Positions 17,564 through 44,747 of a DNA stretch of 64,000 nucleotides are shown here, piece by piece. The notes beneath the pieces are model-generated. The model saw only the letters and a program-made list of their open reading frames with translations. It was not told the origin of the DNA and did not search any database. The translations under genes and the position numbers were made by a program. The stretch is from Cyanidioschyzon merolae (lineage: Eukaryota): NCBI GenBank assembly GCA_000091205.1, contig AP006500.2. The stretch is one strand, 5' to 3'. The stretch's first letter is position 1; every line of letters starts with the position of its first letter.

Positions 17564-19168
17564 TCTTGGAACGTCAAGTCATCCGGAGGGACTAGTTGAT
17601 CTGGTTTCGTGCTTGCTGGCTGTGCGGGCATATGCAGGAGGCCGCAATTGATGCATCAACCCCACAGCATGAGAAAAACACTCCTGGATGCAACAGCGGA
17701 AGTGACCATTCTTACTCGTAGGCAAGCGCGCAGAGATGTCGTTCAGGGATTTCGGATCGTCGACGCTGACTGCGAATCCCCGATGAAGCGATTGATATCC
17801 GCGTCCATCATTGCGCATCGCACTGTGAGGCGTCACCAATCACCACCTTTGCTTCTCTTCACGTATACTAGTCCGCCAGTTCGTGTGATGCTGTGTGGTG
17901 CCGACTGCCTACCCTGAGCGCCGACGAGGACGTACACGGTGCCGCAGCGGATGCTGCACGGAGGCAAAGCGGCTTCGCCATACCCGTGAGAACGTCGGCT
18001 CTAAATGTGGTTTATTTGACGCGTCGTCAGGTATCTCCCTCATGTCGTGCCCTGACAGTCACTGTATGCGGACCTGACTTTACATCAAGATGCGTTGCAG
18101 AAAAGAAGCTGTCAGGAGGAATCCTGAAAACCCCGAGTCTTCGCTTCCCTGTATTGGGAGGCATGCAATGCGGTCTTGCGACTCGGGGGCCATTGCGCTG
18201 CACTCAGCAGCCAGGAGATGCACGAAACGCCGGGCGCGCATGTTCATGCAGTTCGCGGCTCTTTTTCGCCTAGAAAGACGAATAAGAGTTTGGTGCCAGA
18301 TAGCGCGCATTTTGGTCCAACCAGTGGGCCTCCAATTGTCAGTTCTGCACCCAAAATAAGCGAACGCTCATGAGCATCTATAGTGACATCCACGAGGTGT
18401 GATTGCTCGAACAGCCAGCTTCGTTCCTGTGTCCGAACGCGAACACTGCAAAAGCGAGTCTCGCCGAGCATTGGGAGTTACGTCTCCCCTGCAGAAGCAG
18501 TATGATTCCCTGCGAGCATGTAATTTTTCGATGCAACACAAGGCCCGGACGTGCTAGACTTCACCGATTCGCTCTTTAGCGAGCCAGACGGTTCCCATGG
18601 GAACCTCTGACCACCCCAATGACTCCCGCCAAACGTTTCATGTCTCTACTCGGTGGTTCTTCTAATGGGATGCGAGGCCAACGTTGAAGATCCTGTTCTT
18701 TCGAAATCGGCATTTGCATTCTTTGCCTTGAACCGTTCGTTAGAGATGTCGAGAAAAGAGTCAGTCCCAGAAACCAACTGGTATATATCCACTCCAAAGC
18801 CATACTTGAGGAAAATCTGCCTCCACTAGACCCAAACGCTTTTTCGATACCTTGGGATGCACGCCATCATCCGGTTGAGCCGGGGGCGCGTGCTGGGCCT
18901 CTTGGCCCTTGTACGACGCGCTGCAGTCTGCTGCAATGACTTCCAACGGGGGTGTATAGGATTTACATCCGAGAGCTTCCGTGCTGGGTGCTCTGCCGAG
19001 CATCCCGACACGATTCGCATCGACCTGTTGACTGGGGTCTGCATTCGCGAAGCGAGTGCGAGGCTCATGCCCCACCATTCGACGCCCCAGGTGACCGCCT
19101 TGATGATGCACATCCTAATTGACCCGATGCAGACTCCCAGCGACATCCCTATGGGTCCGATAAGAACC

Positions 19169-23760: not shown

Positions 23761-25038
23761 TCAGTCTTCGATTCGTGCTTTCCGATCCATCCATTCCTCG
23801 AGCTTCTCTCTCGGACTTTGACGATTTTCTAGGACGTCGATGACGCCTAACAGAATCGGAAACTTCAACGCTCGTCTCATGGGGTTCAAGTGCGGAAACT
23901 GCCTTTCAATGAGACTCGCAACTGCCTTTGCCGTCGGCACGCCTTCAGCGACCTGACTCGAAGTCTCTAAAATATGAGCAAGGGTTTCACCCTGACCCAG
24001 GCGGTAGCCAACCGTTCTGTTCCGACTGCTCGTGCCGAAGCAGGTCATAAACGTATCGCCTACGCCACTGAGGCCGGCCACAGTCACCGGACGAGCACCA
24101 AAACTCCGCGCAAGGCGCCGCATCTCCGAGCAGCCGCGAGTCACCAGCGCAGCTGTCGCGTTCATACCGAGACCAAGTCCCTCGCAGATGCCGGCAGCAA
24201 GGGCGATAACGTTCTTCACAGCGCCACAAATTTCAACGCCAACAACGTCGCTCGAGCGAAATACTTTCAGTGCTGGTGAGCTAATAGCGGCTGCAATACT
24301 CGCACATGCAGCAGCGTCATGCGAGGCCAGGACGACGGCTGCCGGAAGATCGGCCAACATCTCATGGGCGAAAGAGGGTCCCGAGAGAAACATGCATGGC
24401 ACCGGACGCTCTTTACCGAATACGTCGTCGAAAATCTCGTACATAAAGTTGCCTGTGCTAACCTCAATACCCTTGCTTGTGGACAGAATCGGTGTTCCGG
24501 GCGCCAAATTCGGGCGAACGCTCTCCACGAGAAAAGCTCTGCTCGCTTGGACCGGCACAGCATGAACACATAACCAGCAGCCTTTCAGAGCATCTTCGGG
24601 GTCCGTGGTCGCTCGAACAAGCTTTGGAAACCGGAAGCCTGGAACTAACGCAGTGTAGCGAGGGTTTGTGCGCTCCTTGTTGATCGTCTCTGCGACCTCC
24701 GCTCGACGAACAAGCAGCACAACCTGGTGACCATTGTTAGCCAAGGCAAACGCCATAGCGCTCCCAAAAGAGCCGCCGCCACAGATCGCTACGTGTCGAG
24801 CTTCCTCTTGGCTCTGCCCAGACAATCGTGCGTGCGTAGGTGGAACCTTCCGCCTCACAGACCGCCGCCCATAACTGGGGTCAGCAGAAGGGCGTCGCCA
24901 CAGCGTCACAGAAAAGGCGGTTTCCGTTCGAGCGGATCCTGCGCCCTCGAAGCCCCTAGCCAATGAGATGGCACAAGTGAACGCACTCGAAACAGACCTC
25001 GTGCTCTGTAGCCGCGGCACAGTTTGCTCAGGCTGCAT
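23761..25038 (-). CDS. NAD(P)H-dependent glycerol-3-phosphate dehydrogenase (GpsA type) with about 90-aa presequence
   Basis: VAICGGGSFGSAMAFALA, LSTSKGIE, GAVKNVIALAAGICEGLGLGMNA and GLSGVGDTFMTCF..SRNR.VG. ATG at 25036-25038. TGA stop at 23761-23763. Confidence 0.9.
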   Translation of the reverse strand: MQPEQTVPRLQSTRSVSSAFTCAISLARGFEGAGSARTETAFSVTLWRRPSADPSYGRRSVRRKVPPTHARLSGQSQEEARHVAICGGGSFGSAMAFALANNGHQVVLLVRRAEVAETINKERTNPRYTALVPGFRFPKLVRATTDPEDALKGCWLCVHAVPVQASRAFLVESVRPNLAPGTPILSTSKGIEVSTGNFMYEIFDDVFGKERPVPCMFLSGPSFAHEMLADLPAAVVLASHDAAACASIAAAISSPALKVFRSSDVVGVEICGAVKNVIALAAGICEGLGLGMNATAALVTRGCSEMRRLARSFGARPVTVAGLSGVGDTFMTCFGTSSRNRTVGYRLGQGETLAHILETSSQVAEGVPTAKAVASLIERQFPHLNPMRRALKFPILLGVIDVLENRQSPREKLEEWMDRKARIED

Positions 25039-26019
25039 GAGCTACTATCCTGCATCGGAACGAAGGACGCTCACCCGCGGTAGTGTCGCGCTTCTGATCC
25101 GCGCAGGCGCGTAAGCCGGCAGGAGTCGTTGCTGCATCGAGTTTTTTTCGATGACAGAGCGTTTCCATTGACCATGAATCCCCAATAGCGGGATGGGTAC
25201 TACGATTCATGTAATTCTCCATCATGACGCAACCTATCTCCAAGTTCCATTACCCATATTTCCTCTCAGGTATACTGGTCTTTTCCTTTGTTCTATCGTA
25301 TGCCAAGTGCCTGCAGTGAGCACCCACCGCAGCGCCTAAACCGCTTGTGCGGATGCTACACGGAGACAGAGTAGCTTTGTCATACCACTGAGGGCGTCGG
25401 CTCGAGGAATGCTACACCTGACACGGGATCAGGGCTACTTATCATTCTGGGAGTCTGGAAGCTGCGCAGGCAGGCGTACTGCCTGCGGCAGCGCAGAGCG
25501 ATATTCTTCGAGGACACCACGACCAGCGCGACGCCCAGACGCAGCATACCGCTCTGAGTCCCAGAATAAACTGCATTGCGGACGAGTTGCTCAGATCTCT
25601 CTGCATGACCAGGCTCCGAGAGGTCTATGAAGCACGAGCCTGGGAGAATCGTCCGACTCGCGGGACATTCCGCCCAGAAGGTAAACTTTCGTCAATATGG
25701 AAATCTTTGCTCCCCATGAATTTTTATCATTGACAGGGAAGGCAATTGTTATCTCGCTGCCAGTCAGTAGTGAGTCTCTGCTCTTCGTTCTATAGAGTAC
25801 AGTCGATAGGCGCACCCAGGAGATCTGCCAGGCACGAGGTACGACGTGGATATCGCCATTGAAGAGAAACGCGATCCTGATCATTAGCATGTTGTATACC
25901 GTACAAGGTGTATTTGCGTTGAAGTCGTAGCAACGTTTAGTCTTCAGTTCAGTTGTGTTCCAACCCCAAAGCAAGTATATACGAGCGATTTTTCGTGGTT
26001 TATAGCAGAAGCGTTCAAA

Positions 26020-28263
26020 GTGTGTTCTTTTTCGAAAATAAAAAAGGAAAGTTCTGGACGAAGAAGTGGAGGATCCTGGAGGCACGGTGTCGCCAGGTGG
26101 CGAAAAGAACGAAAAATAGTGCCGAGCAAAGATGAACAGGAGAAGAAGAAGAAGAAGCGAGAGCCAGACCTCAACGGCTGCAAGAAAGGCGACAGCATGA
26201 CGAGATGATAGTGAACGCCTGCCTTCTTGGATGTATCAAGGATCCGTACGAGCAGAAGATGCGAGAGACCACCAGAAGCCGTGTCGATTCCTACTCCAGG
26301 AGCGTGCGTAACACTTCTTTTTGGACTGAAGCATACGGTGAAGGAGATATACGATGACCTTACCGACACGAAAACAGTCGAGGTTCCGGAAGCGTTTTTT
26401 TTAACAAGACCCTCAGCCGCCACTTGATGCTTGGCACAGGGGGACGTCGAGGGAAAATGAGCGCATGTGCGTCCTCCATGAAAAATACCCCTACTAGGGT
26501 CTCAAAGGTACTCGTTACAGGGGTGACTCGCGTATTTTCGAATACAGGGCAAAAAAGTATCTCACGAACCTGAACAACCATATGATCATGAAGCTCGAAC
26601 GTTTCATGACACGCTCCATCGTTGCGCGCTACCCGGGCCTCTCTCGCAAAGGGATACGGGCCATCATCAATGGCGTCAGGAACGATAGTAAGAATGAACA
26701 GGAGATCGAATTCCTCGACGAGAAGACATCACACAGGAGAACGAATGAAGCTTCTGCAATCCGTACGGCAATTCAAGAGCACCGTCCGGTCTCGGAGCTG
26801 GTCAATCCAGCAGGAAATGTATCAGGTATGGAAAAAGAAAAGCAAAGATGTTATCCCCTAATCCTGCGCTATTTCGTGTGTTTGGACCGCGAACTCGATC
26901 CCAAGGCCAATATGGAGCTGGGTGTGGAACAAAATGTAGAGTCAGAGAAACGGAAGGGTATCCTAACGGGTAAGCGCTTTAGCGTTGTTGCGTTATGCAT
27001 CACCAAGTTCCATTTTGTAACAATCGACTCCAGAGTCCTCAACGGCATCATGAAGGAGGTCTGTCTGGAGTTCGATGTAAGGAAGATAGAGTTCACCAGT
27101 GAAAACCGGGAGACGTACTGGAAGAATATCTTCAATTTCAAACGTCTCAATACGTGCAAGCAAAAGGTATTCACTGGCATCATCGAAACCGATGGAGTAG
27201 CCATGTGTGTACACTCTCGGCGCTTGAAGGCAGATCGTCCAGTTCCGTCCTCGACTGCGCCCGTGGCGAAGCATGAAGAAAACAAGGAGGCTGGCCTTAC
27301 AACGCAGGAGGTACAGGAGAACGATTTTGTTGTTGGCACGGACCCTGGGAACACGAATATCGTAACCATCGCAGTACCCAAGCGTGCGGAAGATGATATC
27401 GACGGCAACTTACGTCAGAAGGACATCCGTCTTTGAAAGCTCACGACAGCTACATCTTACCGAGAATCAGGAAAACTGAATGCAAGGAAAAGAAATGAGA
27501 CGTGGAATGCAGGAGTGAAAGAGCACAAGGCAGCGATCAGCCAGGTGACGAGCCGAGGAGCGGACTTTGAAGCTTTTCGAGAGTTCATGAAAGTCCGCGC
27601 TGCTCTTGACGAGCCGCTGTCGAAAGAATCTACAAAGCCCCGGTGGGCTCGTCTGCTTAGAATCTTGTACTTTGGGAAGCAGCACGCATTTGCCAACTTC
27701 TTCAATGAGTTGAGCGCTCTCAAAGAGGACAAAATTCAGAGACTCGTGGTGGTATACGGAGCAGGGCATTGGATGACACGGAAAGGTAGCACACCAGCTC
27801 CATCGACACGAGCGTATAAGGAGTGCACACTGTGCTTCGTCATGATGTCGATAGATGGGTTCCGAACGTCGTATACATCCACCATGAGCTAGGGTGTGTA
27901 CTTGAGAGTGTCGAGATGGAAAAGTGCCAGCAGAGCACTGAGGATGTAGCAAACTACGGAGCGCTGACAGAGCACCTAACGGCATGGAGGGTGCGAGTTC
28001 GAGGTCTACTTCCGTTGGTGAGTACAACCAATGCCAAGAAACATATGAAATTCGTGAACCGAGACTTCAATGCCGCCAACAGTATAAGCAGATAGGCGGT
28101 GCTGGAGAAGAGGCCCCCAGAGTTGACCAGAGCCAACTTTCTGGGGCAACCTCTGCAGATGGCGCTGTACGAGAAGAAGCTGAAGCCAGTAGTAAATGGC
28201 CGGTCCAAAAACCCTGGGAGAATTCTGCACGCTGGCGTATATACATCAACGCTATCGGCTTGA
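26020..28263 (+). pseudogene. TnpB-like / Fanzor-type RuvC nuclease, copy 1, near full length but disabled
   Basis: Ordered motifs are [16 protein letters not shown] (Asp 27341-27343), QRLVVVYGAGHW..KG.TPAP and SIDGFRTSYT (Gly 27857-27859 where copies 2 and 3 have Glu). They are followed by KFVNRDFNAANSI (Asp 28063-28065). Lesions are TAG 26495-26497, a frame change at the T-run near 26395-26405, TGA 27437-27439, a +2 nt insertion at 27878-27879 and TAG 28093-28095. The 5' limit is uncertain. Confidence 0.75.
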
Positions 28264-28804: not shown

Positions 28805-29563
28805 TCATTCCTCAGCGGACGCCGATGACGCCGGTCGAGAGCGAGGCCGAAAGCGCAGCGGTGCAGCGCTACGCTTTCGGCGACTCGAGCCCGAGGTGGC
28901 TTTCACGATGTTCGCGTCGGCGGCCGTGCAGATAAGACGCAAACGATCAGCGTAAACGTAGGCCTCGGTAGTCGCGTCTCCAGCGGAGCGTGCATGACTG
29001 GTCACAGCGGGAACAGCGCGTCCGTCCAGGCAGTCCGGCCGAGGCGGTAAATGGGAAGCAAGTCGCGGGCCCTCGAGTTTCAGGCTCCCGCTCGCGGGAA
29101 CTGCCGGTTCAACGCGTATACTGGCATCCGTGGCGCCACCTAGGTCACTGGTCCGTGGCAGTCGCTCCACAGCAGCGTAGGTTTCCGGTTTGCGCTCGAG
29201 TCGAAGCAGTGCATGTCGGACGAGAAAAGTCCACACGTTATCTCGCAAGTTGTAGTGTGCGAGGCGTCCCCTGAGCACGGAACGCTGGCGGACTTTCCGT
29301 CGTAGATAGCGAGCAACTGCTTGGTCAAACTGGGTCCACACCAAAGCAGCCTCTGACTCCTGCAAGTGTCCCGCGCTCAATAACTCGTCGAGGGTGTCCT
29401 CAAGAGTCAGGCCAATTGTTGAGGCCCGGTAGTGAGCGTAAAACACCCCCGGCTGGTTAGCGGCGGTGTTTGCATCTTGTTTCCCTCCCCGAATGCTTTC
29501 CGTTGTAGCTTGGCCCGCATCTGGCTCTGCTTTTGCAGTACGCTGCGGTGTTGCGTCGCTCAT
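28805..29563 (-). CDS. GTF2A2: transcription factor TFIIA small (gamma) subunit with an internal insertion
   Basis: YRASTIGLTLEDTLDELLSAGHL...ALVWTQFDQAVARYL...RGRLAHYNLRDNVWTFLV matches the TFIIA-gamma N-terminal helical and beta-barrel signature. ATG at 29561-29563. TGA stop at 28805-28807. Confidence 0.7.
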   Translation of the reverse strand: MSDATPQRTAKAEPDAGQATTESIRGGKQDANTAANQPGVFYAHYRASTIGLTLEDTLDELLSAGHLQESEAALVWTQFDQAVARYLRRKVRQRSVLRGRLAHYNLRDNVWTFLVRHALLRLERKPETYAAVERLPRTSDLGGATDASIRVEPAVPASGSLKLEGPRLASHLPPRPDCLDGRAVPAVTSHARSAGDATTEAYVYADRLRLICTAADANIVKATSGSSRRKRSAAPLRFRPRSRPASSASAEE

Positions 29564-31687: not shown

Positions 31688-33655
<1,968 letters not shown>

Positions 33656-34370
33656 ACACGTAAAGTGAATACCCTCAAGATGCCTGCTATCGTCCGCTGC
33701 GGCATTCTCCAAAGCGCGTATCCGCTTGTCGTGGACGCGAATACTGCGTGTCGGCGCTGCAGTTCCGGGACGGCCGCAGGGCCCGCAAGCGCGACACGCC
33801 TCGCTGGCGCGTTCCCGCTGGTAGCTGTCAACGCGAGCTTGTCGTGGGCTTCTCTGCCCAGAGCCGCTGTTATCGGAACCCGGGTTACGGTACTCAAGTG
33901 CGGACAGTGCAGGCAGGGGTCCGCCTAGGTCTGCAACGAGTGCCGCACTGGTCGGCGCCCGCCAGTTCAGATTCGAAGCACATGCCGAAGCGCGTCAGTG
34001 TCACCAGGTCGCTATGAAACGCCAGTGACACTCTCTCCAGATCCAGATACCCAAGTGAGTGACTTATGCTCCTTCAGCGAGTGTCAAGTTCCCGGTGCAT
34101 AAGCTTGCCGAACTGGCGCAGCATGCATCCTGCCAGATGGAAGCAGTTCGATGGTTCACGCTCGCTAGCCTGACGGATCATCTGTAGTCTTTTGTACATA
34201 CCAGGTTTGCAGCCCAGCGAGCCTGGATTCCGATGAAGCACTCGACCGCGATAGCGTACCAGGTCGTCTATTGCAGAGCACGACTTGCATCGATTCTGGA
34301 ATACCGCCACCAAACGCCGTTCGAAAGTCGAACGACGCCAACGGTGTACAGTAGTGGCGAGTGACCCGCC

Positions 34371-35400
34371 CTAGACAAGACGTCTCCAAGTGACGTGCAG
34401 ACGCCATCCGATCTTTCTCGACCGGCCACCTACGACTACTGCTCCCAACTTCTTCTCATATAGTTCGACTTTTGGAGGTTGTTCCACAAAGTTCTCCCGT
34501 GTCAACTCTGGAGGTCTCGTCTCTATCACCGCACATCTCCTTATATTGGTAGCGGCATTAAGGTCTCGGTTCACAAACTCCATACGTTTCTTGCAATCAT
34601 TGGTTGTACGTACTCATGCGAGTAGCCCTCGAAGTCTCGCTCTCCTTTCCATTTGCTCCTCCGTCAGCGGTCCATACTTTTTTATATCTTCAGGGCTCCG
34701 CTGACACTTTTCCATCTCCACTGTCTGAAGTGTACACCCCTGTTCATGGTGTGTATACGAGGTTCGGAACTCATCTACAGGTATCGTAACGAAACGCCGT
34801 GCGCCCTCCTTGTACGTTCTTGTCGTTGGAGCTGGCGTAGTCCCTTTTTGGGTCTTCCATCGCCTTGCTCCGTACGCTACGACGAGCCTCTGATTTCCAT
34901 CCTCCTTCAGGTCACTCAACTGATTGAAAAAATTCGCGAACGCCCGCTGCTCCCCACAATACAAATTCATTCGCAAACGAGCCCGCCGGGGCTTGGTATA
35001 CTCCTCCCACAGCGCATCCCAATGGGCAACGCGAACTTTCATGAATTTCCGAAAAGCTGCAAAGTCCGCGCCTCGTCTAGTCACCTCGCTCAAAGCTTCC
35101 AGGTGCTCTTTCATTCCTGAGTTCCAAGTCTCGATTTTCTTCCTCGCATTCATTATACCGGATTCTCGATAGTATCTTGCTCTCGAGAGCCTCAAAAGAC
35201 GCATGTCTTTCTGACGTAAGTTACCATCAGTCCCATCTTCCGCACACTTTGGTACAGAGATGGTTATGATGCTCGTATTCCCAGGGTCCGCGCCAACGAC
35301 AAAGTCGTTATCCTGCACCTCCTGCATCGCAGGATCCGCATCATTCTCATCTACATCCTTCGCCAGGGGCGAAGCCGAGGACGGACCAGGAAGCGGGCCC
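34371..35400 (-). pseudogene. TnpB-like / Fanzor-type RuvC nuclease, copy 2; the N-terminal half is missing and there is one in-frame TGA
   Basis: DFVVGADPGNTSIITI (Asp 35286-35288), QRLVVAYGARRW, PVDEFRTSYTHHEQGC (Glu 34770-34772) and EFVNRDLNAATNIRR (Asp 34563-34565). ORFs 34614-35327 and 34371-34583 are in the same frame, separated only by TGA 34614-34616. Homology to copy 1 runs upstream to about 35400 (GPLPGPSSASPLAK vs [12 protein letters not shown]) and then stops. Confidence 0.75.
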
Positions 35401-35401
35401 G

Positions 35402-36323
35402 ACGGCGCTGGAGGTGCAGAAGAACGCGTTTGTCGTTGGCGTGGATCCCGGGAACACCCACATCGTTACCATCGCAGCACCCAAGCGTGAGGAAGATGGC
35501 TCTGTCGGCAACTTACGTCAGAAAGACATAAGTCTGTTGAAGCTCTCATGAGCGAGATATTACCAAGAATCCGGTATAATGAATGCGACGGAGAAAAGTG
35601 AGACATCGAACTCAAGAGTGAAGGGAATTTGGAAGCGATCAGCCGGGTGACGAGCCGCGGAGCCGACATTGAAGCGTTTCGAGAGGTTATGAGCATTCAC
35701 GCAGCTGATGACGAGAGCTTTTGGAAAGAATGCACAAAGTTCAGGTGGGCTCGTCTGCGTATGAACCTGTACTGTAGGAAGCAGCGAGCATACGCCAGCT
35801 TTTTCAATCAATTGAGCGCCCTCAAGGAGGACATGAGCCAAAGGCTCGGAGTAGCATACGGGGCAGGGCGCTGGATGACCCAAAAAGGGTGTACACCAGC
35901 TCCAACGACAAGAACGTACAAGGAGTGCGCACATCGTTATGTCGAAATACCTTTAGATGAGTTTCGAACATCTCATACACACCACGAGCTGTGTTGTACA
36001 CTTCAGAGGGTCGCGATGGAGAAAAGCCAGCGGCTCGCTGACGGAAATGCAAATAGCAAGGAGGGCGAAACTTCGAGGACTACTCGCTTTGGTTCGTAAA
36101 ACTAATGATAGGAAGAAACGAATAGAGTTCCTGGACTGAGACTTTAACGCCGCCATCAGTATAAGGAAATGTGCAGTACTGGAAAGAAGACCCCCGGAGT
36201 TGGCGAGAGCCAACTTTGCGGGGCAACCTCTTAAAATGGAGTGATACGAGAAGAAGTTGAAACCAGTAGTAGGTGGCCAGTTGCTGAACGCCAGCACAGT
36301 CGTCTGCACATCATTGGGTAGAC
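35402..36323 (+). pseudogene. TnpB-like / Fanzor-type RuvC nuclease, copy 3; the N-terminal half is missing and it is heavily disabled
   Basis: AFVVGVDPGNTHIVTI (Asp 35444-35446), QRLGVAYGAGRW, PLDEFRTSHTHHELCC (Glu 35959-35961) and EFLD*DFNAAISIRK. In the last motif the Arg codon of NRD is TGA (36137-36139). Further stops lie at 35549-35551 and 36242-36244. There are frame changes near 35620 and near 36030. Confidence 0.7.
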
Positions 36324-36661
36324 AATCGGTCTACGGCGGACGGTGTGAGAAACGCCACCATTGTACACTGGCTTTCCAGCGTTTCTCTTTTGCAAGGCGT
36401 TTGGTGGTGTTTCCAGAGACGAATTGTTTACCAAAAACGTCTTCTATCGATCTTCGAAACCAACGTGCTGCTTCCTCTGTGCGGCACGGGGCGTACGCTA
36501 TGCGCTTTTCTGCTGATTGACAGCGGAAGCGACGAGTCCGGTTACTGCCTTGAAGACTTTGACGCTTTGGAGAGACCATCATATCGATGGTTTCAGTTTT
36601 CTGACCTCCTCCTAACCACCACGCTCGGATCTCTGTTGCAACGGCACGCGCAGCAGCTCTC

Positions 36662-38604: not shown

Positions 38605-39449
38605 TCATGTGATGCTTTCCAAAGCAGCACCCAGGGCGTGGTCATCAAACACGTCGTGGAAATCCCAGAACTGCACATTCCAGCGGGGGTGGTAGCGCCG
38701 ACACCAGCGCTCAAACCCCTGGATATATGCGGGTCGCAGGTGCGCATCCAAAGCGTTCCGGAACGCCACCATGGACTCCTCGATGATCGAGGGATCCATG
38801 AGAATGCTCCCCGACAACGGATCCAGCATCACCTTGACCGGAACATGCTCATAACCCCAGAAAGGCAGTTTCGTCCCGATATCGCCGACCGCTGCCCATC
38901 GGAATGAAAACGGCACATGTCGCTGGAACGCTGCAGCGAAAGCGCGATTCCCGACTCGAGGCGACCCAAAAGTCACACTCATCACCAGATCCGATGACAG
39001 ACGCAACGACTGTGAATTCTCAAAACACGTCATATCGAGGGCAGCGATGCTTGCCAGAGCCCCGCCGAGAGAGTGACCTCAAAAGATCACCGGTTTGTGG
39101 TTGCAAGATGCACTATCCAAGGAGTTCATCGCACTACACGGTTGCGCTTCGCTCGCATCTGCATCTGCTGCTGCTGCTGCTGCTGCTGCATAGGTCAGTT
39201 GAGCGTTCTGTGCAGTCTCTGCTTCCCAGCGGCTGGGGTGCCGGCTGCACTGGGGTCCGCGCATCGAGATCCTATCAGGTTGAGGCTTTCCGAACGATAC
39301 CGTCCATCAGGAAGCTTATCCATGATCCACGAATGCATCCTGATGTGCTGTTCAAGGAGCAGGTTGCTTCTTTCCATGCATAGCTCATGCACCGCTGACA
39401 GGTGCCGCGTACGGACGCACGCACGGCTCGCGCAAAGCCGCCCAGACAC
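38605..39449 (-). pseudogene. class 3 (fungal/plant-type) triacylglycerol lipase, disrupted
   Basis: The nucleophile elbow GHSLGGALASIAAL (39061-39078, minus strand) is immediately preceded by an in-frame TGA (39079-39081). Downstream are TFGSPRVGNRAFA and VGDIGTKLPFWGYEHV. The upstream part (..MHSWIMDKL..) is in another frame, so there is also a frameshift at about 39195-39264. Confidence 0.65.
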
Positions 39450-39767
39450 TCAAAGGCGTCTGCGAAACCGTTCCATCAAATCAGACTTGACGCTAAAACG
39501 ACAGCACTGTTCTGGTTGCAGCGTAACGTGGACGCGTCCGTATCGGAGTCGAGGTCTGGTCCTCGGGTCCAAGCAGCGTCGGTGCATCGCCTAGTACCTG
39601 GTTCAAACGAGGGAACACCTGCGTGGATGCGGCTTCATGTGGAGTGTCCTATTTGTACAGTATACGACAACGATGCGCTGGAGAGGATATTTTGGAACAA
39701 TCATATATATTTAGGACAATAGTCCGCCGAGCGTTTCGGGATTTCAAATGCAAACGCCTCGGAACGG

Positions 39768-42700
39768 ATGCGCCCGTCGGCCGGGCACACTGCGCAGCTG
39801 CAGCGCGCTCCCGCTCCAAAACACCCTATCGCTCTAGTTCACAAAACACTTCAAGCAATGACGTCTGCGGAAGCGTTTCTGCTCCCGTTCCATTGGGAAG
39901 ATGTGGTTCTGGATCCGGACCTCAGGAGCAAGCACCCCGCGAGAGGGCCGGTTGCTCCGCGCTACGCCGTTTCCGTGGACGCATTCGACCTCTCCGACCC
40001 TGATATGGTACAGAGCGCTGTGGCGCTCGCCTCCGGTCACGTTTCCGACCATGCTGCCAACGCGCTGCTCATACCCGAAGACGTTGCGGAAAACGAAACC
40101 ATCCAATGTTTGGACTCGCTTGCCGGTGTCGATGGCGACCAGTCCCTGTCCTGGTGGCTCGCTCCTCTGAGCGACCGAGCAGCAGCGCAACTGCGCGCTC
40201 TTCTTTGGTGCATTCATCACTGGTGCGGACTGAATGACTTCAGCATCCGGGCACAGCTTTTTACTTGTGTTCAACACGGGATCAAGCAAGCACTACACGT
40301 CATGCGGAACGCAGCCCGCGCTGAGCTCAGTGCAGACCCCGCAAACCGAACCGGTACGGATACCTGGCGCTCTATTCTTCGCTTGGTGGCGTTCGTTAGC
40401 GCCCACTGGCTGCAGGCCGTGGAGCGTGAACTTGCTGAGGACGCTGTCGCCTTAAGTCTGCCGCTTGCCGGTACCTCTGGTGGCAGCAGGGTAACTCGTC
40501 TTGAGAGCAGCTCGGCGCGCACAGGCACCAATCAAGGCGGCACACCGGCGCGCTGTCGGGCGAAGCGCCCCAACCTTCGCAAGAAGACGTCTCGTTTCAT
40601 CGTCGAGTCGGATGCTTCCGATGAGGAATCGCCAGCATACGCAGAAGACCAGGCAACGGTATGCACCGGGGACTTGCCTGGAGAACGCGAGCATGCTGGT
40701 CCAGAGAATTCATGGGCTGAGCTCTACGAGGGCGAGCGCGAGCGTCTCCTAGAGGCATTCGGTGAGCTCCTGCGCCAAGAAGGCATCATCAAACTCGCCT
40801 TTCCCTCAGCAATTCCCGAAGACGCATACCTCTACCTGTTTGTGCGCACGTCCTGTGCCTTGCTCGAGTCGCGTCTGGTATGTCGCAAGGAGCGAGCACG
40901 AGCGCTGCTCGTTGATCTCATCGTAGAGTGCCTCTCGCGCTACGGACAAGCTGGTCGATTGTGTCCCATTCTCGTTCACAGTTTGCAACGGTATGAGCAT
41001 GTAGCCCCGGTTCTCGTCGATATCGTGGTGGTGCTGTGTCAAGATGACGCTGACAGCGGCAACACGCAGCGCCGCAGCGGCTCTAATACCAGGGACGCGC
41101 TCCAGGAATCGTTGACTCGTGGCGATGTACCAGCGCTCTCCGTCAGCCAAGCCGGACGCGATGACTGCATTCGAGACCTGATGACGCAAGTGACCCAGAT
41201 TCCTATTAGTGAACTCGCTCGTGACAATACCTGTGCGCGTCATGTTGCACGGTTTCTCACGGAGCTTGCAGAGCGCTCTCCTGGGACGCTGGTTCCCTAT
41301 TTTGCTGCATGGATTCCGCATTTCGATGGTGAGGCATACTCCGTTCGTAACGCGCTTGTGCAAGCCTTTGGATGTGTCCTGAAGCATCTGGCAGAACACA
41401 GGAGCCCTGAGGCTGTACAGGCGCCTCACCAGGAGCCACACGACGAGTCCATGACGCTCCAAGAGCGCCTGCTGCAGTTGCTCTTGCGACGCCTGGATGA
41501 CGTGCATGCTTTGGCGCGCTCGCGGACGCTCCAGGTCTGGCAACAGCTCATCGAGGCTCGTTGTGTACCCGTCAGCTTGTATGCTACCCTGGCTGCTCAG
41601 GTCGCGCAGCGGCTGCAAGACAAGTCGATGCACGTACGCCGTGCTGCCCTGCAACTTATTGCCGTTGCCATCCGGTTGAACCCGTTTGCTGATCGTCTGC
41701 AGCCGGCATTGTTTATACAGCGCCAAGCTCAGTGCCTCCGTATAGCGCCCGATGACCCCGCCTCAACGTTCGAGATGCCCTTCGCGTTAGCGCAAGAAGG
41801 TGCTTCTTTCTATGCGGGCGCAGCTACTTTTGCGGAAATTCTCAACAAAGCTATCCCGCTGGTCAGCAGGCTGTGTCGTTCCCGTCAGAACGGTGACGTG
41901 CTCGATGCCATTCGTGTCTTGTGCACAGCTTACCAGTTCGAGGTGCCAGCTGCTGTGGCTGAGGCACCCAAGCAGACTTTACGTCTGGGTTTATCCCGGG
42001 AGGAAAGCGTTCAGACAGCAGCGCTCGATGCCTTTTACACCATGTGCTTCGTTCTGCCGCTGGAACAGGTCTTGCGCTCGACAAAGCAGCAACAAGATAT
42101 GGCACTCGCGACAGAAGCGCTGCAGACCATGGGTGTCTTGGCCATCACCAGATCCCTGGTGTCGCTGGTCGCTCGGGCTACTGTTGGCGAACTGACCTGC
42201 TTCGAGCGACTCTTGCCAGCATTGTATCGCAGTGAGCGCCTCGCTCCTTCGGTCCTGCAGTGCTGGTGGGACGTGCTCGCCGGTCGAATTCCCGGTGCGA
42301 ACTTGGAACTCATCCGTGGATGCACCTTCCTCATTCAGTGCGTCGTATCCGCAAAGCCACTCACCAAGTCGCAATGCGAGCTGCTGCGAGAGCACGCGTT
42401 TACTGATCTGGTGACTGCCCGTTGGGCCTGCGCGGCACTTACCCACGGTCTAGCAGCCCAGTCGTTAGACTCCGAAGATGGACTGCTTGTCGGCAAGGTC
42501 GAGGCGCTGCTCGTCGACGACACCAGGAGTGTGTACTGGCCAGCAGCCGCTCAGGCCGCTGTCACATGCCTCTTCCATTGCAGCCGGGATCCTTCGCAGA
42601 GCGTTCATCGGGTTCTGCAGCGCCTTGTGGAGCGGCACCAGGTTGCACAGCAACAGGCGAGAGGCTCGCAAGGCAGCACGGCTCATGGCGACGTGCACCA

Positions 42701-44237
42701 AGACAAACCGCAGGTTCGTTGCGCCAGCTCTTGGCTAAGCCGCCTCTTCACCGTGGGCAGCGCTTTTGCTGTGCACCAACTGCACTTTGCCGTGAAGAGT
42801 GTACGCGCTTGTCTGCGCTCCGAGTCGTCGACGAACCCGGTCGAGACCTGTCTCGCCGAGGCAGTTGCGCAGCTGCAACTCGACGATGCGTCAAAGCAGG
42901 TGGAGGCAACTTTGACGACACCGGCAACGGGCCAAGCGCGACGTGCTCGTCAGTCGCACTCGAAAGCGGCCGCGTCCGTTACGGAAGCTAGCGTCGCGCA
43001 CGTTGGTATCGATCCCGAGCGCCTCCAGTACCTGGAAAGTCGTCTGGATCAGCTGTGCAGCGTGCTGGAGACGGAGCTGACGGCACCGGAGGCACCTCTG
43101 GCGGCGCTGGCACCACTCGCTGCCCATGTGCTGTTACGCGCTTGTGCTTGGACACCGCAGTCGCAGTCGCAGTCGCAGTCGCAGTCGCAGCCTGCTGCAT
43201 CTCTCGAGGACGACTCCAGCGTTACCGCAGCGCAGACGCCTGTGCATGGCGCCCGAGTCCAGCCTCGGTCTAGCGCGGACAATACACTCGGGGCTGCTGC
43301 CGCCCTGTGCCTGGGACGACTCGCCTGTCTCCACGAGTCCGTTGCCGAGCGCTTCCTGCGTGTGCTCTTCACCGCCCTGCAACAAGCATCCAGCGCTGTA
43401 GTGCGCATCAACATTGTGGTCGCACTGGGTGACCTGGTTGCCCGCTTTCCCAACCGGCTCGAGCCGTGGACAGATCAACTGTATACGGTACTGCGCCAGG
43501 ATCAAGACGCTCGGGTGCGTCGCTATATGCTCATGGTGCTGACGCACCTCATTCTTAACGAAATGATCAAAATTAAGGGACACTGGGTCGACCTGGTGCG
43601 CTGTCTGCAGGATTCTGACGCTAGCGTCGCGCGACTCGCTCGAACACTTTTCACTGAAATGCAGCGTAAGCGCGTCAGTGCAGCACAAACGTTCATGCTG
43701 CTGCTTCCGGACCTGGTTTGCAGTCTGTCCCAGGAGGAGGAGGCGGAGGAGGAGGCGGCAACGCTGGTTAGCGGGCACGCACCGAGCCGGCTCACAAAAC
43801 CGAAAGCTCTGCAACCGTCCATATCCACGGAAGCATTCCTGGATATGATGCAATTCCTCTTATCGTTTGTGCGCCAGGAGCGTCTGACAGAGCACCTGCT
43901 GGAACGTTTCTGTTACCGTCTGCGGGGTGCCGCCGATGTGCATACTGCACAACGTTTGGCGCTGTGCCTGCCGCTGTTGCACTGCACCAGCGAGCGTTGT
44001 CTCCGCCGTCTCGTGGAGCTCAGCAAGTGCTACACGCACTGGCTAGCAGACGGTGTCGTAGCGGAGGCTCTGTCCCATGTGCTGGCTCGGGTGCAACGAG
44101 CCGCCAAGCGCCCAGAGCAACGCGAACTCGTCCAAGCGTTCGCACAGTGCCTCGCACGCGGCGCACATGTTGATCAGGGCGTTGGTTGTCACGGGATCAG
44201 CACTGGCGACAATGACGACGATGATGACAAGGGTGGC

Positions 44238-44275
<38 letters not shown>

Positions 44276-44747
44276 GATGACGACACCCGCACGCGTGCCC
44301 CAGCACCTCAGCAACAGCAACAGCAGTAGGTTGTCGATGCTCAGGTCTCCAGACGCGGACTCGCCCGTACTCTGGACACCAGGAGCACCTACAGCAACGA
44401 CAAGGGCAATATCAGCGTCTACATCGACTCCGAAAAACGCGGCTGGTGTGCCTGGGAGCGCTGCACTGTGCACACCAGGCAGCGGCTGGCGAACACCGGC
44501 AAGTGCGCGGCAACTTGCACGAGCGCGTGCTCGCACTGCAATGCAGCAACTACTCCAAGAGCACCTTCATCACCGTCATAATCATAACCATCGTAGTCAT
44601 TCTCGTAAGCAACAACAGAACAGCACCAAGCTGGAGCGTTCGCCCTCGTTTGATCAAGTGACGCCTGAGCGAGGTCGCTCGACAAGTCGTCGTCGTCGTC
44701 GTCGTCGTTGTGCGGGCAGCCCAGGGGCCTCGATACGTTCGCCCTAG
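39768..44747 (+). CDS. condensin complex non-SMC HEAT subunit (CAP-D2/Cnd1-like; D2 vs D3 not resolved)
   Basis: Cnd1 C-terminal domain: VRINIVVALGDLVARFPNRLEPWTDQLYTVLRQDQDARVRRYMLMVLTHLILNEMIKIKGHWVDLVRCLQDSD. HEAT-like repeats run throughout the 1659 aa. ATG at 39768 (alternative ATG at 39858). The tail has low-complexity A/Q/R/D runs. Confidence 0.85.

Follow-up and report, generated by a model that had tools for sequence, protein, structure and literature searches.

A window of 64,000 nucleotides of Cyanidioschyzon merolae DNA (the whole stretch analysed, from contig AP006500.2 of assembly GCA_000091205.1) carries, at positions 25133-28235, what is almost certainly an old and inactivated Fanzor1-carrying CMe-1A element of the nuclear genome of strain 10D of this red alga. 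The element, called copy 1 below, consists of a 5' module and of a Fanzor unit with the remnant of an open reading frame (ORF) for a TnpB-like RuvC nuclease, and is accompanied in the window by two 5'-truncated copies of the same unit (copies 2 and 3). The parts of copy 1 are as follows.

25133-25795, plus strand: 5' module of ~660 bp, TE-N2_CMe-like, directly upstream of the Fanzor unit (alignments to metagenome loci begin at 25133-25144; 13-copy multiple alignment)
25796-28235, plus strand: Fanzor unit, made up of the 5' leader, the decayed ORF and ~50 nt from the start of the 3' terminus (copy coverage, boundary motif, 77% consensus identity)
26054-28263, plus strand: Fanzor1 ORF remnant, ~736 codons if repaired (25-copy consensus alignment; tblastn of the homologue P0002 shows the frame changes)
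28187-28235, plus strand: truncated start of the 3'-terminal region, model positions 2-50 of 132 (nhmmer, 3'-end profile)

CMe-1A was described by Bao and Jurka (Mobile DNA 2013, 4:12, PMC3627910), and is the sole Fanzor1 family listed for C. merolae. Its copies number about 150 and match a ~3-kb consensus at about 80% identity, some of them being still intact; it has no terminal inverted repeats (TIRs), its target site duplications (TSDs) were not determinable, and its 5' 635 bp are 95% identical to a separate repeat, TE-N2_CMe, present in ~70 copies (PMC3627910). Copy 1 was compared with this description by species, protein family and published anatomy, and nothing essential sets it apart. 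The species and the Fanzor1 ORF are the same; the element is multi-copy, with three copies in the window and 71 related loci on metagenome contigs, to which exact protein look-ups added four more; copy 1 is 77% identical to a 25-copy consensus (2490 aligned bases), the copies being ~75-85% identical to the consensus; it spans 25133 to ~28235 and, with the ~90 nt absent from its 3' end, would measure ~3.2 kb, which agrees with the published ~3 kb; a separate TE-N2-like 5' module (~635-660 bp) is present, and TIRs are not. On these grounds of species, protein family and anatomy, copy 1 is very probably one decayed member of a family known since 2013. As CMe-1A was published in 2013 and Fanzor was shown to be an RNA-guided nuclease in 2023, this is a rediscovery. 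The details added to CMe-1A are the start-codon position, the full list of lesions, a structured 3' terminus in which the ORF stop is embedded, and head-to-head dimers; the terminus is a concrete candidate omega-RNA for the Fanzor of a thermo-acidophilic alga. It is also worth mentioning that Pfam files the CMe-1A-like family under a domain of unknown function (DUF), not under TnpB/Fanzor.

Fanzor1 identity of the encoded protein

The first-pass annotation of this DNA had proposed a TnpB-like, Fanzor-type RuvC nuclease, and this is borne out, in its Fanzor1 form, by a family profile and by the predicted fold of a relative. The profile, made from an alignment of 22 homologues (A1) and searched against PDB sequences, matches the Fanzor1 proteins of Parasitella parasitica (9cf0, E=1.1e-14), Spizellomyces punctatus (8gkh, E=1.2e-11), and Guillardia theta (9cer, E=0.011), with no Fanzor2 or TnpB chain listed in that search. 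In the profile alignments, the DPG, DEFRTS, and NRD motifs of the family align with DPN, DEYKTS, and NRD of the S. punctatus protein (SpuFz1), and D484, E656, and D725, situated in DPG, DEFRT, and RDxNAA, respectively, are invariant in A1. The structure was predicted with AlphaFold2 for the homologue P0072, 39% identical to the repaired copy 1 protein, rather than for copy 1 itself (predicted local distance difference test 83.4, predicted template-modelling score 0.76). Ranks 1-7 of the Foldseek search with this model are occupied by the Fanzor structures of Spizellomyces, Parasitella, and Guillardia (E=2.7e-17 to 5e-15, template-modelling score, TM, 0.52-0.70), the best match being Spizellomyces Fanzor1 (E=3e-17, TM 0.62-0.70), while Cas12f structures come next (E about 4e-4). 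The comparison of a predicted structure with Fanzor, proposed earlier as a check, turned out positive for a relative of copy 1 as regards the bilobed fold with an RNase-H-like split RuvC domain known from solved Fanzor1.

Several results weigh against this assignment. The other check proposed earlier, by Pfam PF01385 and PF07282 (the latter being the Cas12f1-like TNB domain, earlier named OrfB_Zn_ribbon), failed: the repaired copy 1 protein matches neither model, and no Pfam TnpB/Fanzor model is above threshold for the relatives, among which PF07282 gives sub-threshold matches in 14 of 25 family members (best E=3.7e-4, all under the 26.3-bit cut-off). The precomputed Pfam label of the relatives, in the gene tables of three metagenome loci (L001, L002, L003), is PF26935 (DUF8286) only, and the curated library has, therefore, yet to connect the family with TnpB/Fanzor. 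The CCCC zinc finger of the NUC domain, common to SpuFz1 and ISDra2 TnpB (PMC10432273), has no counterpart, as no Cys is conserved across the family at the aligned positions of the NUC/TNB domain, the CPRC and GC..NC positions of SpuFz1 being replaced by (T/I)HHE(D/L) and W/L-x-S. Finally, none of the 71 metagenome loci holds a fully intact ORF, the best (in L001) having 819 open codons, no ATG, and a premature stop. Since the sequence profile and the fold agree, the assignment of the family to Fanzor1, the Fz1 clade of the TnpB superfamily, is nevertheless supported by sequence and model despite the failed Pfam test.

The region of the zinc finger (A1 columns ~755-830, window 27880-28030) reads THHELGC…KC in the copies from Cyanidiales, and is devoid of any Cys in the other members; the H, H, C, and C found near the zinc-finger positions in the Cyanidiales copies are, accordingly, not conserved family-wide. 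The relatives P0072, P0076, and P0088-P0103 look intact (590-700 aa, Met starts, complete C-termini), are 30-39% identical, and come from metagenomes of apparently more AT-rich organisms, so the family is wider than Cyanidiales.

The RuvC motifs are common to TnpB and Cas12f, and the weaker Cas12f fold matches (E about 4e-4) could be taken to mean that the gene is a bacterial or archaeal TnpB, present by contamination or as a recent horizontal insert, or a protein of the Fanzor2/IS607 type rather than Fanzor1. This is extremely improbable, as in both sequence and fold the top matches are all to eukaryotic Fanzor1, no serine recombinase or TnpA gene lies near copy 1, the element is multi-copy in the lineage, and the local G+C content of copy 1 is 0.50 against ~0.55-0.58 in the flanks. 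The surroundings speak in the same sense. Copy 1 is intergenic, between the genes of glycerol-3-phosphate dehydrogenase and TFIIA-gamma, and the genes relevant here are the following.

23761-25038, minus strand: ORF of NAD-dependent glycerol-3-phosphate dehydrogenase, flanking gene
28805-29563, minus strand: TFIIA-gamma ORF, flanking gene
31703-33655, plus strand: DEAD-box helicase ORF, flanking gene
39768-44744: condensin ORF, 1659 aa, exact database match

The 90% cluster of the condensin ORF includes condensin subunit D2 of C. merolae 10D (BAM82644/XP_005538680), encoded on a chromosome record of 1.25 Mb, and the junction of the element with the TFIIA-gamma side is also present on a contig of a 99.5%-identical strain. 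The exact condensin match, the eukaryotic flanking genes, and the repetition of the junction together establish that the locus of copy 1 is nuclear DNA of the red alga and not contamination, and the earlier claim of a eukaryote-resident rather than bacterial gene holds with the dehydrogenase, TFIIA-gamma, and DEAD-box neighbours and the condensin match.

Reading frame and lesions of copy 1

Four motifs had been read from the sequence in a fixed order, and translation of the region in all frames finds them in that order within 27329-28086: the RuvC-I motif (12 residues, with GTDPGNT among them) at 27329-27364 in frame 2, LVVVYGAGHW at 27743-27772 followed by KGSTPAP at 27782-27802, IDGFRTSYT at 27851-27877, and FVNRDFNAANSI at 28051-28086 in frame 1. 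A chance origin of the motifs is excluded, because the conceptually repaired protein of 559 aa finds 104 homologues with E down to 3e-212. The positions that define the state of the ORF are listed below.

26054-26056, plus strand: start-codon position of the family, CTG in copy 1 with the ATG lost (41-copy consensus)
26495-26497, plus strand: in-frame stop TAG (translation, tblastn)
27341-27343, plus strand: RuvC-I Asp codon (D of GTDPGNT), retained (invariant in A1; aligns with DPN of SpuFz1)
27434-27436, plus strand: in-frame stop TGA (translation)
27857-27859, plus strand: RuvC-II position, where GGG (Gly) replaces the invariant Glu of DEFRTS (Glu in copies 2 and 3 and in all homologues)
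28063-28065, plus strand: RuvC-III Asp codon (D of NRDFNAA), retained (alignment A1, SpuFz1 alignment)
28093-28095, plus strand: in-frame stop TAG (translation)

Copy 1 is interrupted by six frameshifting indels, namely -1 at 26102, -4 at 26152, +1 at 26318, +2 at 26391-26392, -1 at 26444, and +2 at 27878-27879, and it lacks the last ~90 nt of the element, homology to other copies ending at ~28231-28235. Most of the lesions claimed in the first-pass annotation stand: the TAG stops at 26495 and 28093, the TC insertion at 27878-27879, and the replacement of the conserved Glu by Gly (GGG, 27857-27859), where every relative has Glu. The middle stop exists as well, as a TGA, at 27434-27436 instead of 27437. 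The frameshift placed in a T-run near 26400 corresponds to the +2 indel at 26391-26392, the four further frameshifting indels at 26102, 26152, 26318, and 26444 having been missed. The start of the ORF had been set at the GTG of position 26020, but this codon is out of frame, the ATG position of the family being 26054-26056. A stop at 26117 was considered too and rejected, as it is out of frame given the -1 deletion at 26102. The copy had been called dead, and its decay goes beyond what was claimed, comprising the lost start, the six indels, the three stops, the Glu to Gly change, and the missing 3' end.

The catalytic D-E-D triad is complete in the family and incomplete in copy 1, in which the Glu is Gly. 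Copy 1 is a pseudogene member of its family, because of this replacement and because six frameshifting indels and three stops disrupt its ORF; it is an inert molecular fossil. The differences from the consensus at codon positions 1, 2, and 3 are 0.20, 0.18, and 0.30 in copy 1, and the third-position excess is likewise seen in all the other copies, which indicates that part of the divergence arose while the master copies were under coding constraint, in agreement with the argument of Bao and Jurka that the protein mattered to the CMe-1A family (PMC3627910).

This hint at a past coding constraint, together with the frames of copy 1 still spanning the whole protein, could be read as a sign that the locus is a working host gene in which introns, editing or programmed recoding eliminate the apparent stops and frameshifts. 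Such a gene is barely credible in view of the lost start, the six frameshifting indels, the three stops, the Glu to Gly change, and the loss of the 3' end of the element. The lesions are, moreover, specific to copy 1, the same positions being open in the other copies. The genes of C. merolae are nearly all intron-less, which also counts against a host gene.

Boundaries, 3' terminus, and dimers

The Fanzor unit is delimited by the coverage from 46-78 other copies, which increases at ~25800-25850 and stops at ~28231. Its 5' boundary is marked by CGCTCGGTGAGCGCACC, a motif common to all copies, and at least four different recurrent sequences abut this boundary in different copies. The TE-N2-like module adjoining it in copy 1 occurs also on its own, without a Fanzor ORF, both in other loci (such as L035 and L025) and in the window.

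17728-18031, plus strand: isolated piece of the TE-N2-like 5' module, without an adjoining Fanzor ORF (nhmmer E=1.6e-24; blastn 25349-25403 vs 17947-18001)

The 41-copy consensus at the start of the ORF is GGAAAGTT ATG AAA AAG CAA, encoding MKKQVDDPGG with the start at window position 26054, and a basic, NLS-like (nuclear localization signal-like) N-terminus follows. The 25-copy consensus is open throughout, with the exception of a variable 75-bp tandem-repeat region just upstream of RuvC-I, and its protein ends with GRRLHVSWRRLV and a stop; the family consensus Fanzor1 is ~760-780 aa long and has the D/E/D RuvC triad. The 75-bp (25-aa) repeat, …KHEExKEA…QEVQDNDxVV…, lies at 27262-27335 of the window, at L001:7146-7450, and at residues ~395-480 of P0002; there is one unit in copy 1 and about five in other copies, and the junctions of the dimers described below lie in the same region.

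Comparison of each 5' end with the 3' end gave no TIRs, only chance 7-9-mers being shared. An orthologous empty site, from which the termini and TSDs could be read, was not found either: among strains 98-99.5% identical, the L076 and L077 contigs stop before the copies and L079 already has copy 1. L076 and L077 (98-99% identical to window 38849-40253) stop at 38849 and 39051, a short way upstream of the condensin gene, and a further repeat that breaks assemblies may lie between 36.4 and 38.8 kb. A reverse-transcriptase fragment (RVT_1) is located at L003:742-1239, on the minus strand, ~2 kb upstream of a Fanzor copy, possibly by coincidence.

The last ~130 nt of the element are conserved in 45 non-redundant copies as GCAGTAGTGGGTGGCCGGTC…GGCGTCTGCACGTCAGTTGGAGACGTTTCGTCTAGGGCG…CGCCACTACTGTAC…CGTCGTTCGACTTTCGAACGGCGTT, and the ORF stop TAG, within …GTCTAGG…, lies ~55-60 nt before the element end. 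A closing stem of 9-10 bp (CAGUAGUGG/CCACUACUG) recurs in single-sequence folds, which give also internal hairpins and a terminal hairpin; the latter is a few nt from the end, and its pairing is kept in two variants, TTCGA/TCGAA and TTTTTC/GAAAGG. For the 3' terminus of copy 2 the folding energy is -65.3 kcal/mol (z=-4.18), a value that 0 of 200 shuffles reach. In the proposed structure 86% of alignment cells are paired, compared with 39-64% in slid controls, and the trimmed 3'-end alignment gives a consensus fold. The structure is thus plausible from sequence, with covariation not proving the pairing.

An RNA role of the terminus is suggested by analogy. Fanzor was demonstrated in 2023 to be an omega-RNA-guided DNA endonuclease whose RNA derives from the transposon end, with the 3' flank of the latter serving as the guide, and which cuts next to a target-adjacent motif (PMC10432273). 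By comparison with TnpB and SpuFz1, the likeliest role of the CMe-1A terminus is that of an omega-RNA scaffold. In an active element, the terminal ~130-nt region would be transcribed as this scaffold, the guide would come from the adjoining flank, and the Fanzor1-RNA complex would cut matching DNA beside a target-adjacent motif, aiding the persistence or spread of the element. Copy 1 is capable of none of these steps, having lost the start, the frame, the catalytic Glu, and the 3'-terminal ~90 nt. Two results count against a firm assignment of this role: compensatory changes in the 3'-terminus alignment are not above shuffled controls, and RNAalifold predicts no pairs from the untrimmed alignment of 45 sequences. 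Rfam gives no match to the terminus, its two sub-threshold, miRNA-like chance matches both lying outside the element.

Similarity among the copies stops after the terminal …GGCG, beyond which the sequence is in many cases T/G-rich and triplet-like (A3 columns ~150-165), as in TTTGGTG, GTGGTGGTG, and GCTGCTGCTG. The flanks of the copy 2/3 dimer (34296-34307 and 36396-36412) stay ~70% similar over a further ~18 nt. Such similarity beyond the terminus could reflect a target preference, a tail, or a true terminus situated slightly later.

Copies 2 and 3, which are 5'-truncated, are arranged head to head.

34308-35391, minus strand: copy 2, a 5'-truncated Fanzor unit with the C-terminal ~330 codons, one in-frame stop, and DPG, DEFRTS, and RDLNAA kept
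34308-34438, minus strand: complete 3' terminus of copy 2 (nhmmer)
35358-36407, plus strand: copy 3, a 5'-truncated and more decayed Fanzor unit with a complete 3' terminus at 36264-36406

Together they form an imperfect palindrome of ~2.1 kb (34308-36407) whose outer ends are element 3' termini, whose arms are 73-79% complementary, and whose centre lies in the 75-bp repeat region. The same dimer architecture is found in L045 (1798-4343), L046/L047 (L047:1-1810), and L063 (1-1732). Copy 3 is 95% identical to the matching arm of L047 and copy 2 is 88% identical to the other arm, the homology ending at the element terminus and the flanks being unrelated. Such an arm-for-arm match in unrelated contexts suggests that dimers whose arms had already diverged are present as multi-copy units. 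Twin priming, considered as an explanation of the copy 2/3 pair, was rejected, since both arms represent the same portion of the element, each with its own 3' terminus. Several internal 5'-truncated copies, too, carry complete 3' ends.

The 3' terminus could equally, or additionally, be a DNA or template signal for transposition. In the strong form of this explanation it is mainly such a signal, its subterminal hairpins being recognised by a rolling-circle (HUH) enzyme or a reverse transcriptase, instead of or besides an omega-RNA scaffold, and CMe-1A is a non-autonomous replicative carrier of Fanzor1; we regard this as possible, though on balance rather improbable. It would account for the absence of TIRs here and for Bao and Jurka having found no TSDs (PMC3627910), and it is consistent with the hairpin near the end, its pairing kept in two sequence variants, with the 5'-truncated copies bearing complete 3' ends, with the at least four recurrent sequences at the 5' end of the unit, and with the dimers having the 3' terminus at both outer ends. 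HUH transposons are generally characterised by hairpins, by orientation-specific insertion, and by a lack of TSDs (PMC10288648). However, no Rep/HUH or reverse-transcriptase partner of CMe-1A was identified in this analysis, the Helitron termini 5'-TC and 3'-CTRR were not seen in the end alignments, and Replitron-like proteins were not detected in red algae (PMC10288648). Besides, in TnpB/Fanzor systems one end serves both roles, so a transposition signal is compatible with an omega-RNA.

A replicative mechanism starting at the 3' end would be compatible with the dimers, with the occurrence of 5'-truncated copies whose 3' ends are intact, with the variety of 5' partners, and with the lack of TIRs; this is offered as a hypothesis only. 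A more far-reaching conjecture, which we consider unlikely, is that CMe-1A and its DUF8286 relatives constitute a distinct, zinc-finger-less Fanzor1 lineage of elements defined only by the hairpin-rich ~130-nt 3' terminus, this acting at once as omega-RNA scaffold and as the only cis-signal for replicative transposition initiated at the 3' end, either rolling-circle-like or RNA-mediated. If true, it would explain at one stroke why TIRs and TSDs are missing, why there are 5'-truncated copies, why the 5' partners vary, and why the dimers recur as units at different loci, and a transposon family unclassified since 2013 would gain a classification.

Comparison with known systems

In its lack of TIRs and TSDs, its subterminal 3' hairpin, and its 5'-truncated copies, the CMe-1A family resembles the Helitron-borne Fanzor1 of Chlamydomonas and other HUH-type elements. 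It differs from the Helitron-borne Fanzor1 in that no Rep/helicase gene was seen and the end alignments show no canonical 5'-TC or 3'-CTRR.

With ISDra2 TnpB and Cas12f the family has in common the split RuvC fold, the weak Cas12f fold match (~4e-4), and the sub-threshold PF07282 matches. In ISDra2 TnpB the sequence of the guide RNA scaffold coincides in part with the 3' end of the nuclease ORF and with the right end of the element, and an omega-RNA from the 3' terminus of CMe-1A would be placed alike. The family is distinguished from these systems by a much larger REC lobe, an N-terminal extension, a location in the nucleus of a eukaryote, the lack of a TnpA partner, and the lack of the CCCC zinc finger.

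Close known systems besides CMe-1A itself are the Fanzor1 proteins of Spizellomyces (SpuFz1; 8gkh, 9ceu), Parasitella, and Guillardia, to which the family is only 11-16% identical. SpuFz1 has the CCCC zinc finger of the NUC domain, absent from the CMe-1A family, and SpuFz1 elements have inverted repeats at both ends, in contrast to CMe-1A, which has none. Nevertheless, the WED/REC/RuvC core is homologous, with profile E=1e-11 to 1e-14 for SpuFz1 and Parasitella, and the predicted fold (TM 0.6-0.7) and the D/E/D order in DPx, DE[FY]xTS, and NRD are the same. Like the SpuFz1 element, CMe-1A is a multi-copy eukaryotic element in which a non-coding RNA would be expected at the 3' end.

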